Notes under the pieces: generated by a model
What the model was told of the DNA's origin: nothing
Seen by the model: only the letters and a program-made list of their open reading frames with translations
Databases searched by the model: none
Assembly: GCF_963921235.1 (NCBI RefSeq)
Contig: NC_086108.1
Location: forward strand, 24,552,001 to 24,616,000
Source of the DNA: Mobula hypostoma
Taxonomy: Eukaryota
Direction of reading: 5' to 3'
DNA length: 64,000 nt
Part shown: one piece after another, positions 11,641 to 61,041 of the stretch
How the letters are laid out: the number at the start of each line of letters is the position of its first letter
Numbering within the stretch: position 1 is the stretch's first letter
Position numbers and translations under genes: made by a program

Positions 11641-12185
11641 ATATTTTAAGAAGATAGTAGCATGTAAATAGTTTGAAAATACATCGACAATCGGCCAAAC
11701 TTGCTCCAACTCCCATAAATGCAAAGTAAAAAGCAATACAGACAAAATAACAATAAACTCACTATTTTCTTCACCCTCTGAATATCAGCCACAAGGAAAA
11801 TTAAAAATTGACTCACTGGCAATAAACCTTGGAGTAATTGCTGAGAATCAATTGAAGCAAATGCTTACGTATCTCCCTCCATCAAAAGTGTTGAGTGAAT
11901 CGGATTTAAAAACATCCTTTTCTAACATCAATTCCCAATGAATTTTCTCTGACATGTGTATAATGGAGTTTTCACCTTTATACATAAAAACATTGCTTTT
12001 AAATTGGAACCTAAATGTTTTATGGAAAGGTTCACATTCTCACATATTTCAAATCACACCATTGGAGTAATTGCAGAAATCCTTTGACACAAGTACTCAG
12101 TGAAACTGATTCTGTAATTGATGAGCAACAACATAAAAGTCGCTGGTGAACGCAGCAGGCCAGGCAGCACCTCTAGGAAGAGGTA

Positions 12186-12223
12186 CAGCCGACGTTTCGG
12201 GCCGAGATGCTTCGTCAGGACTA
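12186..12223 (-). ncRNA. Hammerhead motif, helix II damaged
   Basis: TAGTC-CTGACGA-AGCATCTCGGCCC-GAAACGTC-GGCTG on the minus strand. Confidence 0.6.
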
Positions 12224-12499
12224 ACTGAAAGAAGTGCTAGTAAGAGATTTGAAAGTTGGAGGGGGAGGGATGAAGCTAAGAGCTGGACAGGTGATTGGCA
12301 AAAGGGATATGAGAGGATCATGGGACAGGAGGCCTAGGGAGAAAGAAAAGGTGGAGGGGGGGAAAAACCCAGAGGATGGGCAAGGGGTATAGTGAGAGGG
12401 ACAGAAGGAGAAAATGGAGAGAGAGAAAAAGAATGTGTGTATATAAATAAATATCGGATGGGGTACGAGGGGGAGGTGGGGCATTAGTGGAAGCGGAAG

Positions 12500-14140
12500 G
12501 CTCTTCAACTTTTCGACCACATTTTGACTCAGACTCGCTATCACAGCCGTATATCCTTTATTGGAATGTGTCTCCGCCGCAACTTACTCCAGTTGGCTTT
12601 AGGATTCATTTTCGAGCCTCTCAATTTGGACCTTCTGAGGATCCCAGGTACTCACATTTCATTGACTCTGCCTCTCATCGCTTCTCCCATCAAGCTCTGA
12701 AGGTGACACTCTCCGCCATGAGGAGGTATTTGGTGTCCCTATCCCAGACCCTCCCACACTTTCAGGACACTTTCTTCGCCGTCTGTAATGGACCTGCTCG
12801 TTATTTCATCCTCTGTCGGATCAATGCCAGCAATCGCCGTATTTTTGACTTTGTCATGCTAGGCAAGGATCACAAGAACTTACATCTGCAGACACCAGAG
12901 CCTGCTGGCCCCAATGCTAGCAGGCATGAACTTCAGATTGCGGCCCCTGCCATTGGTCTCGCCAGCTCCAACACCAAAAGGCATATTCAAAACCCGGACT
13001 CCAGCAACAACCATGACACCTTCAAAGCGATTGCGCAACCACCAACTGCGATTCCAGCATTGAAGTCCAGGCCGGGTATTTATGTGCTGCTATTGTTACT
13101 CCCGTCTCCCCTTCCCCCACCACCACTCTGCAACCCGTATCCCTCAGATCCCACCATCAGCTTCTGGGCCCTCAGAGGCTCCATCTTCCTCTCACCCCAA
13201 ACCTCGCCACTCCACTGACACCCCCAGCCTCCCCCCTCCCCCCTCTGATCCCACTTCTCATCCGTGCCGGGTCCTTACCATCCCCTCCAACCTTCAACTG
13301 ACTGAGGCAGAGCGCTCTGTCCTCAGTAAGGGCCTCACCTTTGTCCCCCTTCACCCACACCTCAGCGAGTTCCGCGTTTGCCATGATGCTGAACTCTTCT
13401 TCCGCTGGCTCCGTCTCCAAGCCTACTTCTTCAGCAAGGACTCTCCCACCCCCACCGATGACCCCTTCTCCCGTCTTCAACCCTCTTCCTCTTCATGGAC
13501 ACCCCGCTCTGGTCTTCTGCCTGCTCTGGATCTCTTTATTGCTAACTGCCAATGGGACATCAACCATCCCAACTTCACCGCACCTTGTTCCCATTCCAAC
13601 TTCACTCTTTCCGAACAGTCTGCTCTCCACTCCCTCCGCACTAATCCTAACATTACTATAAAACCCGCCGATAAGGGGGATGCTGTTGTAGTCTGGCGCA
13701 CTGACCTCTACCTCGATCATGACACCACTAAGGAGCACCAGGCCATTGTCTCCCACACCATCACCGACTTTATCCACTCAGGGGATCTCCCATCCACTGC
13801 TACCAACCTTATAGTTCCCACACCACGCACTTCCCGTTTCTACCTCCTACCCAAGATCCACAAACCTGTCTGTTCTGGTAGACCCATTCTCTCAGCTTGC
13901 TCCTGCCACACCAAACTCACTTCTGCATACGTCGACACAGTTTTATCCCCCCTTGTTCAATCCCTTCCTACCTATGTTCGTGATACTTCTCACGCTCTGA
14001 AACTTTTCGATGATTTTAACTTCCCTGGCCCCCACCGCTTTATTTTAACCGTGGATGTCCAGTCCCTATAAACTTCCATCCCCCATCAGGAAAGGCTCAA
14101 AGTTCTCCGCCTCTTTTTGGATTCCAGACCTAACCAGTTC
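12500..14140 (+). pseudogene. PLE polyprotein fragment (N-terminal region + RT fingers/palm start), frameshifted and truncated
   Basis: ORFs 12487-13218 and 13082-14071: SVLSKGLTFVP, ELFFRWLRLQAYF, ALHSLRTNPNITIKPADKG. Confidence 0.88.
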
Positions 14141-14224
14141 CCTCCCCCTCCTGTCTTCTCCTATCGTTTCAGATCTACCCCTCCCCTTCCCACTTTCAAA
14201 TCTCTTACTAGCTCTTCTTTCAGT

Positions 14225-14262
14225 TAGTCCTGACGAAGGGTCTCGGCCTGAAAAGTCGACTG
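14225..14262 (+). ncRNA. Hammerhead motif, palindromic loop mutated (ACGT to AAGT)
   Basis: TAGTC-CTGACGA-AGGGTCTCGGCCT-GAAAAGTC-GACTG. Confidence 0.65.
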
Positions 14263-14570
14263 TACCTCTTCCTAGAAATGCTGCCTGGCCTGCTGCGTTC
14301 ACCAGCAACTTTTATGTGTGTTGCTTGAAATTCCAGCATCTGCAGATTTCCTCGTGTTTGCACTGTAATTGATAAGTTACTTTCTATGGTCTGTCACAGA
14401 TACTATCACTCTTTTTATTTCCCAAGTTTAAAACAGTTCTCGAAACAAGGCTATTTACATGCTGCAATCTTCTTCTTGAGAAGCCTTAATTTCAAACCGG
14501 CTTGCTTCCGCTCTGGTATTGTGCACTGTTGGTTGCTGATGAGGCCAATGTGGATTCTGCAGAGTTTTGT

Positions 14571-14789: not shown

Positions 14790-15595
14790 CAGGCCTCCCC
14801 GCCCTGCAGTATTCATTAAAACCCGCATTGTGAGCCTGTCCGGAGCTCAGATGAGCTGCCCAGCTCGGGTCCTATGTTCAAAGGATGGAGGAACAGCAGG
14901 TGCCTCTGGCTTGTTTCGTGTTGTGTTGACATGATCACGGTCATGGCGTGATGGCAGGGGAACGGTAGTGCAATCCACCAAATCTTGGTGGGCCTGTTTA
15001 AGGTGATCTAGAGAAATACATTCAGGTTTACCCCTCTTATTTATGATAAAAGTCTTTCCTCTCGATTCAAAAATGCGGAATGGAGCATTGTAAGTGGGGG
15101 GCATAAGGTGATGTTGGAGTGCATCATGGTAGACAGTCAGTCAGAGACTGAAAAGCTCACGGTCAAACGTGCTGTACTTCCTTTTGGCGGGAAGAAGCTG
15201 CCAGCTGAAGAAGGAGAGCAGGTGCCACATGCCTACAACCAACTGTCCATGCACAGGACCCACAGCATAGCCTGAAGCATCAGTAGTGATGGCTATAGGT
15301 GTGTTGGGGAGCACATATGCCAATAGGGATGATCTAGAAAGAGCTTGTTTGCTATCATCAAGTGTCTTGGTCATGTCTGCTGACCAGTCAAGCACGTGAT
15401 TAGGGGTATTGTCTTTAAGTGTACTGTACAGGGGGAGTATAAGTTCAGCCGCTCATGAAATGAAGTGGTAACAGAAGTTCACCATACTTAAAAGTTCTTG
15501 TAAATTTTTAGTAATGCTCACAGACCTCAGAAGTCCCATTGCGCTGGCACTGTTGCTGCAAGGTGGTCGGCATTTCCTAGCGTTCCTCCCAAAGC

Positions 15596-51530: not shown

Positions 51531-51660
51531 TGTTGTCCTCACTGAGAAGAATGTAATATCCGTGTATTATATTTATATCTTAATTGAAGATAGCACCACC
51601 GAACAACACAACCAAAGGTGACCTCCTTCAGATAGTTTACAAAACTACTATTATTTCCTT

Positions 51661-51852
51661 CAAAGTTGCTGGTGAACGCAGCAGGCCAGGCAGCATCTCT
51701 AGGAAGAGGTACAGTCGATGTTTCAGGCCGAGACCCTTCCCTGAAACGTCGACTGTACCTCTTCCTAGAGATGCTGCCTGGCCTGCTGCGTTCACCAGCA
51801 ACTTTGAGGTGTGTTGCTTGAATTTCCAGCACCTGCAGAATTCCTCGTGTTC
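51661..51852. mobile_element. 192-bp PLE hairpin insertion
   Basis: 13-bp TSD CTATTATTTCCTT (51648-51660 and 51853-51865); 67-bp inverted arms at 51661-51727 and 51740-51806; PLE tail on the right. Confidence 0.93.
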
Positions 51853-53663
51853 CTATTATTTCCTTACTACTTCTTTCAAATATGTTTCTGTTACAGTTAG
51901 ATTCTGTGATACATAGAAACATAGAAACATAGAAAATAGGTGCAGGAGTAGGCCATTCGGCCCTTCAAGCCTGCACCGCCATTTATTATGATCATGGCTG
52001 ATCATCCAACTCAGAACCCCGCCCCAGCCTTCCCTCCATACCCCCTGACCCCTGTAGCCACAAGGGCCATATCTAACTCCCTCTTAAATATAGCCAATGA
52101 ACTGGCCTCAACTGTTTCCTGTGGCAGAGAATTCCACAGATTCACCACTCTCTGTGTGAAGAAGTTTTTCCTAATCTCGGTCCTAAAAGGCTTCCCCTCT
52201 ATCCTCAAACTGTGGCTCCTCGTTCTGGACTTCCCCAACATCGGGAACAATCTTCCTGCATCTAGCCTGTCCAATCCCTTTAGGATCTTATACATTTCAA
52301 TCAGATCCCCCCTCAATCTTCTAAATTCCAACGAGTACAAGCCCAGTTCATCCAGTCTTTCTTCATATGAAAGTCCTGCCATCCCAGGAATCAATCTGGT
52401 GAACCTTCTTTGTACACACTCTATGGCAAGGAGGTCTTTCCTCAGATTAGGGGACCAAAACTGCACACAATACTCCAGGTGTGGTCGCACCAAGGCCTTG
52501 TACAACTGCAGTAGTACCTCCCTGCTCCTGTACTCGAATTCTCTCGCTATAAATGCCAGCATACCATTCGCCTTTTTCACCGCCTGCTGTACCTGCATGC
52601 CCACTTTCAATGACTGGTGTATAATGACACCCAGGTCTCGTTGCACCTCCCCTTTTCCTAATCGGCCACCATTCAGATAATAATCTGTTTTCCTATTTTT
52701 GCCACCAAAGTGGATAACTTCACATTTATCCACATTAAATTGCATCTGCCATGAATTTGCCCACTCACCCAACCTATCCAAGTCACCCTGCATCCTCTTA
52801 GCATCCTCCACACAGCTAACACTGCCACCCAGCTTCGTGTCATCCGCAAACTTGGAGATGCTGCATTTAATTCCCTCATCCAAGTCATTAATATATATTG
52901 TAAACAACTGGGGTCCCAGCACTGAGCCTTGCGGTACCCCACTAGTCACCGCCTGCCATTCTGAAAAGGTCCCGTTTATTCCCACTCTTTGCTTCCTGTC
53001 TGCTAACCAATTCTCCACCCACACCAATACCTTACCCCCAATACCGTGTGCTTTAAGTTTACACACTAATCTCCTGTGTGGGACCTTGTCAAAAGCCTTT
53101 TGAAAATCCAAATATACCACATCCACTGGTTCTCCCCTATCCACTCTACTAGTTACATCCTCAAAAAATTCCATGAAATTCGTCAGACATGATTTTCCTT
53201 TCACAAATCCATGCTGACTTTGTCCGATCATTTCACCGCTTTCCAAATGTGCTGTTATCACATCCTTGATAACTGACTCCAGCAGTTTCCCCACCACCGA
53301 CGTTAGGCTAACCGGTCTATAATTCCCGGTTTCTCTCTTCCTCCTTTTTTAAAAAGTGGAGTTACATTAGCCACCCTCCAATCCTCAGGAACTAGTCCAG
53401 AATCTAACGAGTTTTGAAAAATTATCACTAATGCATCCACTATTTCTTGGGCTACTTCCTTAAGCACTCTAGGATGCAGACCATCTGGCCCTGGGGATTT
53501 ATCTGCCTTCAATCCCTTCAATTTACCTAACACCACCTCCCTACTAACATGTATTTCACTCAGTTTCTCCATCTCACTGGACCCTCTGTCCCCTACTATT
53601 TCTGGAAGATTATTTATGTCCTCCTTTGTGAAGACAGAACCAAAGTAATTATTCAATTGGTCT

Positions 53664-53803
53664 CAAACAACAGGAATTCTGCAAATGCTGGAAATTCAAG
53701 CAACATACATCAAAGTTGCTGGTGAACGCAGCAGGCCAAGCAGCATCTATAGGAAGAGGTGCAGTCGACGTTTCAGGCCGAGACCCTTCGTCAGGACTAA
53801 CTA
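53664..53803 (-). mobile_element. 140-bp PLE mini-element (hammerhead + 3' tail)
   Basis: 13-bp TSD ATTCAATTGGTCT at 53651-53663 and 53804-53816; sequence closely matches 1258-1393. Confidence 0.95.
53762..53799 (-). ncRNA. Minimal type I hammerhead ribozyme motif, intact
   Basis: TAGTC-CTGACGA-AGGGTCTCGGCCT-GAAACGTC^GACTG. Confidence 0.82.
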
Positions 53804-54965
53804 ATTCAATTGGTCTGCCATGTTCTTGCTCCCCATAATCAATTCACCTGTTTCTGTCTGTAGGGGACCTACATTTGTCTTTACCAGTCTTTTCCTTTTT
53901 ACATATCTATAAAAGCTTTTACAGTCCGTTTTTATGTTCCCTGCCAGTTTTCTCTCATAGTCTTTTTTCCCCTTCCTAATTAAGCCCTTTGTCCTCCTCT
54001 GCTGAACTCTGAATTTCTCCCAGTCCTCAGGTGAGCCACTTTCTCTGGCTAATTTGTATGCTTCTTCTTTGGAATTGATACTATCCCTAATTTCTCTTGT
54101 CAGCCACGGGTGCACTACCTTCCTTGATTTATTCTTTTGCCAAACTGGGATGAACAATTGTTGTAGTTCATCCATGCAACCTTTAAATGCTTGCCATTGC
54201 ATATCCACCGTCAATCCTTTAAGTGTCATTTGCCAGTCTATCTTAGCTAATTCACGTCTCATACCTTCAAAGTTACCCCTCTTTAAGTTCAGAACCTTTG
54301 TTTCTGAATTAACTATGTCACTCTCCATCTTAATGAAGAATTCCACCATATTATGGTCACTCTTACCCAAGGGGCCTCTCACGACAAGATCGCTAATTAA
54401 CCCTTCCTCATTGCTCAAAACCCAGTCCAGAATAGCCTGCTCTCTAGTTGGTTCCTCGACATGTTGGTTCAAAAAACCACCCCGCATACATTCCAAGAAA
54501 TCCTCTTCCTCAGCACCTTTACCAATTTGGTTCACCCAATCTACATGTAGATTGAAGTCACCCATTATAACTGCTGTTCCTTTATTGCACACATTTCTAA
54601 TTTCCTGTTTAATACCATCTCCGACCTCACTACTACTGTTAGGTGGCCTGTACACAACTCCCACCAGCGTCTTCTGCCCCTTAGTGTTACGCAGCTCTAC
54701 CCATATCGATTCCACATCTTCCTGGCTTATGTCCTTCCTTTCTATTGCGTTAATCTCTCCTTTAACCAGCAACGCCACCCCACCTCCCCTTCCTTCAAGT
54801 CTATCCCTCCTGAATATTGAATATCCCTGAACGTTGAGCTCCCATCCCTGGTCACCCTGGAGCCATGTCTCTGTGATCCCAACTATATCATAATCATTAA
54901 TAACAATCTGCACTTTCAATTCATCCACCTTATTACGAATGCTCCGTGCATTGACACACAAAGCC

Positions 54966-56891: not shown

Positions 56892-57253
56892 TTAAGAGAA
56901 ATGACTGAAAAGAGTAAATCGGACTTAAAAGTAAAATGAAAACTGGTAATTGAAAATAATCTAGGCGGAATAACTTGAATGATAGCAATATGGTCGAGAC
57001 ATAAATAGGAGAAAATTCTCTATGATTATTCAAACTGCTGAGGGCCCTCTAACACAGGGTGAAGATAGAGTTTATCCCTCTGAACTGAGACGGGTCGGTG
57101 CTCAGGCCTCACTGTGGGAAGTCGGGGAAAATTTTCAAATGTTATACGTTCAGAAATGTCTAGGGTGTGGTTATATGTCTTGGTTTACTGTTGAGAAGGG
57201 ATTGCTTACTGTTTGGTTAGAAAAGGAGAGTGCTTTTTTTCTACTAGAGAAAA

Positions 57254-60200
57254 ATGCAAACTGAATTGGTAAAAATAATTTCCTATAATGTTAATGGGGT
57301 TTTGAATCCAATTAAAAGAAATAAGATTATGTCTAAATTGAAAAAAGAGAGGGCACAAATAGCTTTCCTCCAGGAAACACATATGAGCCAATCTGAACAT
57401 GGAAAATTAAAAAGAATGGGCTTTAAGCATGTATTTTATTCATCATATAAATTGAGTCACAAAAGAGGGGTAGCTAGTTTAATATCAAGTACTCTTAATT
57501 ATGAACATATTTCAGAGACTAGAGACAAAGAAGGACGGTTTGTAAAAATCACAGGAAGAATAGAAGGTACAGAAATAACATTGCTGAATGTTTATGCTCC
57601 TCCAGGTAGTGAATGGTCATTTTATAGACACATTTTTGACCTAATGGTCAGTTCTCGAGGGGTAGTAATTTGTGGAGGGGATTTTAATATTAGATTAAAT
57701 CCTATATTACATTCTTCAAGAATAGTTACTCAGAATAAACCTCTGACTCGGAAAGTGAATTCATTGATGGAGGAGTTGGGAATTATAGATGTCTGGAGGG
57801 AATTACACCCTACTAGTAAAGATTATACATATTACTCTTTCCCTCATTCAGCCTATTCAAGGATAGACTATTTCTTTATCTTTAATACAGATAGACTCAG
57901 GATAAAAAACTGTAATATTGCAACAATTGATCTGTCGGATCATAGCCCAGTCTCTATGCCTCTAATCCTGGAAAGGAAAATGAGGAAAACACTATGGAGG
58001 CTAAACTCACATATACTTAATAACCCAAAAGTAATGGAGAGATTAAGGGGAGAAATCAAAGAATATCTACACCTTAATGACACGGGAGAAACATCACCAG
58101 TGATTTTATGGGATACATTGAAAGCTGTACTGAGAGGGAAAATTATTTCCATTACTACTCACATGAAAAAAATCAATGCACAAAAATTAGCAGACCTTCA
58201 AGGAAAATTAAAACAACTTCAAGTTGGATATAGCAACAAAAGTAATTCAAATCGAAAACAGGAAATTAGGAAATTGCAAAGTGAAATTGATGATATTTAT
58301 ACGTTGGAAACTCAAAGAAATTTTCTTTACCTGAGACAAAAGAATTATGAAGTAGGAGGTAAATCAGCTAGATTATTAGCATATAAATTACGAAAACAAC
58401 AAGCAGACAATACAATTCATAAAATAAAGAATCCAAAGACAAAGCTTGTGGAGAGTACAATAGGGAAAATTCAAGAGAGTTTTGAAACGTATTATTGAGA
58501 GCTGTACTCCCAACCCCGGGCCCCCAATGAGCCCTATATAGACAGTGTATTGAATTTTTTAGATCTACCTAAACTTACAGATTTACAAAATGAAAGTTTA
58601 TTAGAACCAGTAACTGTCAAAGAACTGAACGTGGCCATCTCTAGGTTAAAGGCTGGAAAGTCCCCGGGTTCTGATGGGTTTATCTCAGAGTGGTACAAGT
58701 CCCTGAAGACACAGTTAGCCCCATTACTACTTAACACCTTTAATTGGATCTTGCAGAGAGGAGAAACTCCACCTTCCTGGAGAGAAGTGATTATTTCAGT
58801 TATTCCTAAAGAGGGTAAAGATAAACTAGAATGTGGCAATTATCGGCCAATTAGTGTTCTTAATTTAGATTACAAACTATTTACATCTATATTAGCGTGC
58901 AGATTGGAAAAGCTTTTACCTGGCCTAATCCATTTAGACCAGACTGGATTTATTCAACAAAGACAAACACAGGACAACATAAGGAGAACTTTGCACATAT
59001 TAGAACAGGTTAATAAGAACGAGACAGAGACAATGGTAGTAGGATTGGACGCTGAGAAAGCTTTTGATTCGGTTAGTTGGGCATTCCTATACAGAGTGTT
59101 AGGAAGTTTCGGCTTTCAAGAAAGGTTTATTAAAGTAATTCAGACTCTGTATGACAGCCCAACAGCCTGAATTAAGATAAATGGGGACCTCTCTGACTCC
59201 TTCATTTTAGAGAGAGGCACTAGACAGGGATGCCCAATTTCTCCTCTCCTTTTTGCGCTATATATTGAACCACTTGCCCAACTAATAAGACAGAGCGAAA
59301 TCGTAAAAGGTATCAAGGTGGCAGGGATTGAACAGAAAGTGGCGTTATTCGCAGATGATGTTTTGGTCTATCTGAGTGAACCAGAAAAATCATTTATAGG
59401 ATTGTTTACACTGTTGGATGTCTTTGGGAAAATATCAGGTTATAAAATAAATGTAAAGAAAACGCAGGTTATGTCCCTAAATTATACACCATCCAAAAAA
59501 TTGCAGGATACATACGATCTTAAGTGGGAAGCTAAATCATTAAAATATTTAGGAATAACCCTGCCGAAGATCTTTCAACACTGTCACAGGTAAATTATGG
59601 GCCATTAATCTCAGAGATAAAAGCAGATATGCATAGATGGAATCTTATCCCCTTTTTAAGTTTAAATTCAAGGATAAATACTATAAAAATGAATATTCTT
59701 CCTCGGTTATTATATCTTTTCCGTACTTTACCAGTGGAGGTGGATGATAATCAATTCAGGGAATGGGACAAATGGATTTCCCGCTTCATTTGGCAAGGAA
59801 GGAAACCTAGAATTCGATATAACACTTTACAGTTAGGGAAGGAAAGAGGAGGTATGGTTCTTCCTTGCCTGAGAAATTATTTTTATGCCTCACAGATAAC
59901 CCCTCTGTTATATTGGTGTAATAGGGAATATAAGGCTAGATGGAAGGAAATAGAATTTGGATTAGTTGACAGTTTTCCTCTTCAGGCCTCAATAGCTGAC
60001 AAAGGATTGATGGCCCAGTTGGAAAAATTTAATAATGCTTGGATAAATCTTACATTAAAAGTATGGCAGAAGGTGGTTAATTCATGTGGAATTAATAACA
60101 TGCTAAAACTCTTTAGATGGTGTGCATATGATACCGAATTCCTTCCCAACAGAGGAGATAAAAGATTTGAGCTATGGATAAAGAAAGGTCTTACAACCTA

Positions 60201-61041
60201 CCTCTCATTTATAGATAAAAGAGTATTACAAAGTTTCCAAATCCTGCAGGACAAACATGGCCTAGAACATAATGACTTTTTTAGGTACCTTCAAATACGA
60301 AACTATGTTAACCAGAGTTGTAGATATACAGACCTATCAACAGTAGAATTAGAATTTTTCAAGATTCTGAATTCGGCTTGCAGTTCAATACCTAGTAAAT
60401 CAGTTTCTCGCCTATATAATGCACTCTCCCATGCGAAAAATGTAAATACACTGTATATTAAAGAGAAGTGGGAGAAAGAAGCGGGGTTGGTACTTTCAGA
60501 GGAGGCTTGGGGGAAAATCTGCAGCTTTCAATGGTCCTCGACTAATTCTTTGACTTGGAGAGAACATTGTTGGAAAAACATTATAAGATACTTCAAGACC
60601 CCATATCAGGAAAAATATAAAGATACAAATGTGATGTGTTGGAGAAGGTGCGGCTCTAGGGAGGCAAATCATTTTCATATTTTCTGGGATTGCCCTAAAT
60701 TAAGTCTATTTTGGGAAGGTATTCATAGAACATTAGTTAAGGTACTTAGGTCCCAGATACCTCTGCACTTTGAGACGCTCTATTTGGGGCATGTATTGTT
60801 CCTTGAACAGAAGGAAGATATAAAGTTGCTGCAGGCCCTCTTAGCGGCAAGTAAGAAATCAATCACTAGAAAATGGCTAAATCCAATACCACCTACATTA
60901 GAAGATTGGTACGAAATTATCTTGGAAATATTTAAAATGGAAAAGTTGACCTACTCCCTGAGAACTCAAAAAGAAACATTTTATCAAATCTGGAATAAAT
61001 GGATTGAATATATAACCCCAATGCGAGCAGACTTTAGATGA
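57254..61041 (+). pseudogene. L1 ORF2p (APE EN, RT, C-terminal Cys/His knuckle) with two stops and one frameshift
   Basis: SYNVNG, FLQETH, GGDFN, SRIDY, SDH; DAEKAFD, TRQGCP, LFADD; CWRRCG..NHFHIFWDCP. In-frame TGA at 58496 and 59168; 1-bp deletion near 59570. Confidence 0.95.

Follow-up and report, generated by a model that had tools for sequence, protein, structure and literature searches.

A 64,000-nucleotide stretch of the Mobula hypostoma genome (contig NC_086108.1, from position 24,552,001; G000:C50:24552001; genome size, 3.48 Gb), hereafter termed the window, contains a 192-bp insertion enclosed by a 13-bp direct repeat, CTATTATTTCCTT, at 51648-51660 and 51853-51865 (Table 1). The insertion has two stem arms of 67 nt each (51661-51727 and 51740-51806), and the sole noncomplementary pair, T51719 opposite G51748, is a T·G pair on the plus strand and an A-C mismatch on the minus-strand RNA. 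The arms are separated by a 12-nt loop, CCGAGACCCTTC. An automated inverted-repeat call on the same hairpin gave arms of 68 nt with 99% identity, and the predicted fold of the plus strand has an energy of -152.4 kcal/mol (z, -21; 200 shuffles). The hairpin is far beyond chance as a hairpin, yet it is not rare in this genome. The tailed arm shows 92 to 96% identity to other copies within the window and 92 to 100% identity to 40 scored genome matches. A first-pass annotation of this DNA had already given the 67-bp arms, the single G-U pair on plus-strand RNA, the 12-nt loop, the flanking target site duplication (TSD), and the 192-bp insert, all of which agree with the present geometry.

Table 1. 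Features of the 192-bp hairpin insertion (element positions are numbered with hammerhead residue C3 as position 3)
Feature	Position	Strand	Basis or remark
TSD, left copy (13 bp)	51648..51660	.	Identical to 51853-51865
Tail-less inverted arm of the PLE terminal repeat, element ~87 down to 8, loop included	51661..51739	-	
Loop: hammerhead G8-A9, extra A, and most of helix II; confined to the tail-less arm	51728..51739	-	Sequence; intact neighbors at 2376-2420 and 14223-14265
Tailed arm, element 20 to ~132; begins at helix II 3' strand	51740..51852	+	Identity to other copies
Unpaired 3' part: rest of the terminal repeat and PLE "tail," on one arm only	51807..51852	+	Tail known from the available text of PMC8557442 and PMC11167929
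TSD, right copy (13 bp)	51853..51865	.	Identical to 51648-51660

The hairpin derives from a Penelope-like element (PLE), as the first-pass annotation had supposed; its terminal repeat is continuous with a PLE-type reverse transcriptase (RT) frame in long copies. A natural tandem copy of 3.46 kb (G000:C2:60036995-60040576) encodes an RT with DKG and YIDD motifs, and its RT frame matches Pfam RVT_1 with an E value of 8.6e-5, below the curated cut-off. Natural family copies have a CX4CXXC linker (CKRNKCYTC), and the C terminus of the 3.46-kb copy contains, as judged by eye, a GIY-YIG-like VIY...YIGET motif together with conserved His and Cys residues; searches of its endonuclease part against Pfam, NCBIfam, and PDB sequences gave no match. 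The terminal repeat joined to the RT frame, the tandem copy, and the one-sided tail of the inverted pairs are the arrangement of endonuclease-bearing (EN+) PLEs, and these sequence features fit a young EN+ PLE. The family probably belongs to the clade Neptune, judging from its linker; in the available text of PMC8557442, a CX2-5CXXC linker between RT and EN is a Neptune feature, and a linker motif is known from Nematis as well.

The loop is the antisense of element positions 8 to 19, consistent with the earlier description of it as antisense to the hammerhead helix II region. The minus arm starts at G8, lacks C3 to C7, and carries a CpG-type change, G28>A (T51719), in the helix III palindrome, and the plus arm starts at position 20 and lacks the entire CUGANGA box; the earlier view that neither ribozyme is complete thus stands. 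The CUGANGA box, helix I 5' strand, and palindromic helix III that define a minimal type I hammerhead do not occur together in this copy. Hammerheads were recognized from their core motifs and the available published description of the minimal form (PMC4209133) rather than by a model match, and a search of the whole window against Rfam at gathering scores gave 0 matches. Intact hammerheads are present in neighboring copies at 2376-2420, 14223-14265, and 53760-53802. The core boxes, the extra base before helix II, the palindromic 15.2-16.2 pairs, and helix I and II pairing are all present at 2376-2420 and 53760-53802, and helices I and II appear in the predicted fold of an intact copy, with a z of only -0.9 for the whole 143 nt. 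According to the available text of PMC4209133, minimal type I hammerheads of metazoan PLEs can occur as dual motifs on opposite strands, 100 to 700 bp apart. Intact copies of the present family match this type in their CUGANGA and GAAA, the single extra base that precedes helix II, the palindrome of helix III, and the shortness of helix I, whereas both motifs of the 192-bp copy are broken by truncation.

Four further young insertions of this PLE repeat lie in the window. A longer head-to-head pair of the family (1259-2479) has arms of approximately 605 and 625 nt, the tail on the left arm, a 14-nt TSD, and a 9-nt junction overlap. A complex PLE insertion at 12124-14358 consists of an inverted arm, a broken RT stretch (approximately 12500-14160), and a tailed end that is short; this insertion also has an internal deletion, whose junction overlaps by approximately 23 nt. 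A single tailed copy of 136 bp (53667-53802), which ends at element position -5 and has a 13- to 15-bp TSD, lies inside a minus-strand LINE-like element (RT, 52014-53348; endonuclease, 53804-54964) whose short-repeat tail ends approximately 60 bp from the hairpin. A second LINE-like element on the plus strand (57248-61038) has endonuclease and RT frames and is accompanied by a 501-amino-acid stop-free frame after it (59536-61038), which has no Pfam match. An LTR-type RT/RNase H fragment lies on the minus strand at 15144-15452. No host domain was found in 150 of the 173 long reading frames of the window, and the domain matches were to retroelements only.

The family was surveyed in a sample of 1.664 Mb, comprising 15 blocks on 13 contigs, one of which contains the window, with arms accepted at identities of at least 87%; this filter lost at least one real pair and let in a few tail-only fragments of older families. 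In total, 86 arms were found, of which 44 form 22 head-to-head pairs and 42 are single. Scaled from this sample to the genome, the numbers are approximately 180,000 arms and 46,000 pairs. A tailed arm was joined to a tail-less one in all 22 sampled pairs and in 55 of 56 pairs derived from searches, a set left after 14 of 70 loci were dropped for low identity or a missed arm. A flanking repeat of 12 to 18 nt, with one mismatch allowed, encloses 22 of the 22 sampled head-to-head pairs (1.664 Mb). The lengths of the two arms are coupled (rho, 0.85), with 11 short-short, 10 long-long, and 1 mixed pair in the sample. Of 21 sampled pairs, 16 have a tail-less arm that extends further upstream than its partner (P = 0.027); this lead is absent in short-loop loci (19 of 36; P = 0.87), which were selected for near-equal arms. 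Each arm has sequence that is unique to it in the 192-bp copy and in 16 of 21 sampled pairs.

Alleles were compared between the arms of 74 of 81 pairs, with L251 to L256, which had been chosen for discordance, left out; L144 and L145 are duplicates of one event. At non-CpG polymorphic sites, arm-to-arm discordance was 30 of 349 (8.6%) versus 39.9% between pairs and 2.5% at invariant sites, and many of the discordant sites fall in poly-C tracts. The low discordance fits an origin of the two arms of a pair from one source copy. The shared alleles could come in part from gene conversion between arms or from two RNAs of one locus; 25 of 209 rare variants are common to both arms. Two individual loci, L242 and L259, carry a rare variant in both arms, from either a mutated source copy or gene conversion. 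An origin of the arms from two random family RNAs, which was hinted at by approximately 6 of 50 listed matches, was rejected on the basis of the subfamily alleles shared by the arms.

Inversion junctions were surveyed genome-wide with pairs of 14-mers facing each other across a gap of at most 30, with equal geometry at the hammerhead and at both control positions; this geometry misses pairs with both ends near position 0. Short-loop junctions numbered 3,307 at the hammerhead, 190 downstream (breaks at approximately 36 to 66), and 724 upstream (approximately -45 to -15), and reversed control patterns gave 0 loci. Ten of 15 fetched hammerhead-junction loci belong to the young family, which corresponds to approximately 2,200 of the 3,307. 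Per arm reaching each anchor in the sample, the hammerhead excess is approximately 15-fold over downstream and only approximately 2-fold over upstream. Among the 86 sampled 5' ends, 27 lie in the zone from -15 to 20, compared with 4 and 2 in the adjoining 36 nt on the downstream and upstream sides, respectively. The junction enrichment at the hammerhead expected by the first-pass annotation is therefore real, but the hairpin-specific cause it had proposed did not hold, because single copies end in this zone as often as paired arms do (12 of 42 and 15 of 44, respectively).

The 5'-end profile was refined with genome-wide patterns in three-base windows, from which read-through copies were removed by hand in 100 listed matches each. 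At -10 to -8, 41 of 100 among the matches listed were kept (1,286 matches; approximately 530 ends); at -5 to -3, 77 of 100 listed (4,314 matches; approximately 3,300 ends); and at -2 to 0, 95 of 100 listed (7,904 matches; approximately 7,500 ends). The window at 8 to 10, searched with a narrower filter, gave 2,573 matches with 63 of 100 listed kept, or approximately 1,600 ends (2,400 when scaled for the filter), and that at 30 to 31, the scissile bond, gave 755 matches with approximately 82 of 100 listed kept, or approximately 620 ends. The pile-up is real, is general to all copies, is centered on the helix I 5' strand, and exceeds the count at the scissile bond approximately 12-fold. The alternative of one sharp 5' end at G-4 was dropped since the -2 to 0 window has more than twice as many ends. 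The ends of the hairpin at 51661-51852 itself, positions 8 and 20, lie on the 3' shoulder of the pile-up, off the peak.

The 192-bp insert is a dead, minimal head-to-head insertion of a young, apparently EN-bearing PLE, likely made by double-ended priming on the RNA of one source copy. The pairing of a tailed with a tail-less arm, together with a single source, agrees with a model in which both DNA ends act as primers and the two established RT start sites are used. We infer the double priming, the single RNA, and the cause of the stopping zone from finished insertions. In this model, both ends of a 13-base staggered DNA cut would prime reverse transcription on one source copy's RNA, one at the tail end (approximately 132) and the other 30 to 45 nt upstream (87 to 105), positions that would correspond to the pair of RT start sites demonstrated in vitro with the anole element. 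Synthesis of each cDNA would proceed toward a strong stopping zone at the helix I 5' strand, which most likely marks where a short template RNA begins, and the products would be trimmed and then end-joined, in the 192-bp insert at positions 20 and 8. The first-pass annotation had instead proposed a fold-back or template switch at the ribozyme structure, in which a single cDNA would serve as its own template. Such an event would account for the arm-shared alleles, the coupled arm lengths, and the junction enrichment at the hammerhead, and it may have formed those sampled pairs whose tailed arm is the longer (5 of 21), but it requires one arm to lie wholly inside the other. Fold-back is excluded for the 192-bp copy because each arm holds sequence absent from the other, positions 8 to 19 being present in the tail-less arm alone and the tail in the tailed arm alone; most sampled pairs likewise have unique sequence in both arms, and single copies end in the same zone. 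For the family as well, this origin is very improbable. MITEs are short, noncoding, TSD-flanked elements with terminal inverted repeats, and the 192-bp hairpin resembles them in all four respects but is unlike them in that its same-junction loci do not form a homogeneous amplified unit with fixed ends. The exact junction of the insert does recur, as the first-pass annotation had proposed to check, with five genome occurrences including itself, and a commoner junction, 6/-4, with a 2-nt microhomology, makes up approximately 10 of 100 listed matches in the 4,314-match search; end joining appears to be strongly guided by microhomology. The outer ends and flanks differ among all 5 same-junction loci, two of which have the tail on the loop-bearing arm, and among all 10 fetched copies with the 6/-4 junction, which also differ in tail side and subfamily alleles, and the TSDs of 12 to 18 nt are the same as those of long PLE pairs. 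These look-alikes are repeated independent events, and the MITE-like label of the first-pass annotation, or a SINE-like nonautonomous element multiplying as a hairpin unit, is largely refuted and extremely unlikely. The 6/-4 junction (L241 to L250, G000:C1) is represented by some hundreds of independent copies genome-wide. One hairpin insertion is present twice, 4 kb apart (L144 and L145; G000:C1:13257903 and 13261860), probably through local duplication.

Among three readings of the end pile-up, the favored one is that RT runs off a short RNA at its 5' end, because a structural stall is expected 3' of the stems, where ends are rare. The stopping zone matches what we take to be a pyrimidine-purine initiator-like sequence, and it also coincides with the predicted outer pair of helix I and with a motif of branch point, pyrimidine tract, and tandem AG. 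In a rival reading, the insertion is likewise double-ended, but RT on a long RNA would be blocked near -5 to +10 before it reaches the RNA end, the obstacle being either splicing factors at the 3'-splice-site-like motif or a hammerhead-bound protein. A CTTACTAAC-like sequence, a pyrimidine tract, CAG, and TTAG stand immediately 5' of helix I, the ends prefer the G of both AGs by hand count, a stalled leading enzyme would couple arm lengths too, and in the available text of PMC4209133 the intron of Drosophila virilis Penelope ends at the helix I 5' end. Blocked RT is nevertheless unlikely, since a structural stall should fall 3' of the stem (23 to 38), where ends are approximately 12-fold rarer, and the TSD lies at most 1 nt from the end in 4 of 4 single copies ending at -5 to -3. 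Because the TSD adjoins the end in these four copies, no upstream exon was copied; a spliced upstream exon was also rejected by the lack of a common upstream sequence among 100 listed matches with ends at -5 to -3. A GT..AG joint ending at either AG was found in none of the joints listed (15 joints per copy, two natural copies, and contigs of presumed-RNA runs; 433 and 67 more joints lie beyond those listed), a result that is neither for nor against splicing. In the D. virilis Penelope, the intron end lies 46 bp plus 75 bp past the start site, according to the available text of PMC2377424. The window itself contains, at 2360-2382 and 14204-14228, the branch-point-like CTTACT(A/C)AC, a pyrimidine tract, and tandem CAG/TTAG immediately before helix I, and older PLE families in the sample have a YAG just before the hammerhead. 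A role of the 192-bp copy, which the first-pass annotation judged a would-be Drosha/Dicer substrate, as a hairpin RNA that is retained or exploited to give small RNAs against the family receives very little credence: the near-perfect stem of 67 to 70 bp would form if transcribed, but thousands of equivalent hairpins in the genome make this one unremarkable, and a LINE-like element ends approximately 60 bp away in the surrounding repeat-rich DNA. Among 16 sequencing runs presumed to be RNA, none contained as many as half of the sequence words searched. No function is indicated for this copy.

A stricter form of double-ended priming is offered tentatively, as somewhat below an even chance. Paired priming would be obligate, with a protein dimer on one RNA using the tail-end site for one target strand and the upstream site for the other, and short transcripts starting from the outer edge of helix I would mass-produce tens of thousands of near-perfect 70- to 130-bp hairpin loci, a possible built-in double-stranded RNA source against the family. 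If true, one step would account for both the inverted arm and the one-sided tail, PLE features that have long lacked an explanation. As an insertion of an abundant PLE, the locus is ordinary and very short, one of thousands of similar hairpins; it matters little in itself, the population figures matter modestly, and the interest lies in what the family as a whole says in favor of paired priming on one RNA. The one-tail rule, the same-source arms, and the helix I stopping zone give a concrete model that is testable in the existing in vitro PLE system. Annotators should be warned that such hairpins are by origin neither MITEs nor microRNA precursors.

In L1 twin priming, two target ends prime on one RNA and leave an inverted 5' part between TSDs; the L1 segments hardly overlap, whereas both arms here copy the same stretch of at least 70 nt. 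A literature search covering few subscription papers and no supplements found neither a map of PLE inversion breakpoints nor an application of twin priming to PLEs, and Fig. S2 of PMC11167929 may show end profiles. The inverted truncated arm and the one-sided tail are themselves described PLE features, the canonical EN+ unit being a 5'-truncated copy with an adjacent inverted 5'-truncated copy and a 30- to 40-bp tail at one end (PMC8557442 and PMC2377424, available text); their origin is called undefined in PMC8557442, and the available text of these two papers gives no figures on inner-end positions or a strict one-tail rule. The present family shares with canonical EN+ PLEs the inverted truncated copy, the tail at one end, the pseudo-LTR hammerhead, and an RT, together with a candidate C-terminal GIY-YIG-type endonuclease whose motif was seen by eye, and the 192-bp copy differs in that both arms are only approximately 80 to 113 nt and no open reading frame is left. 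Non-LTR retrozymes, as described in the available part of bioRxiv 10.64898/2026.07.22.740005, are alike in their PLE pseudo-LTR origin and hammerhead but consist of tandem units, each with a complete hammerhead, whereas the units here are head to head and both motifs are incomplete. The closest mechanistic comparison is with Poseidon of Anolis carolinensis, for which the available text of PMC11167929 reports that the PLE protein cuts and extends both DNA strands in vitro, that RT starts at two adjacent internal RNA sites bounding the tail and requires RNA downstream of them, and that mutants with a dead hammerhead insert normally, so that ribozyme cleavage is dispensable. Poseidon and the present family would be alike in the two start sites that define the tail; they differ in clade and host. 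In the same text, no difference in start-site use was seen between top and bottom strands and inverted arms are not accounted for, whereas the two ends of the insertions described here would nearly always use different sites.
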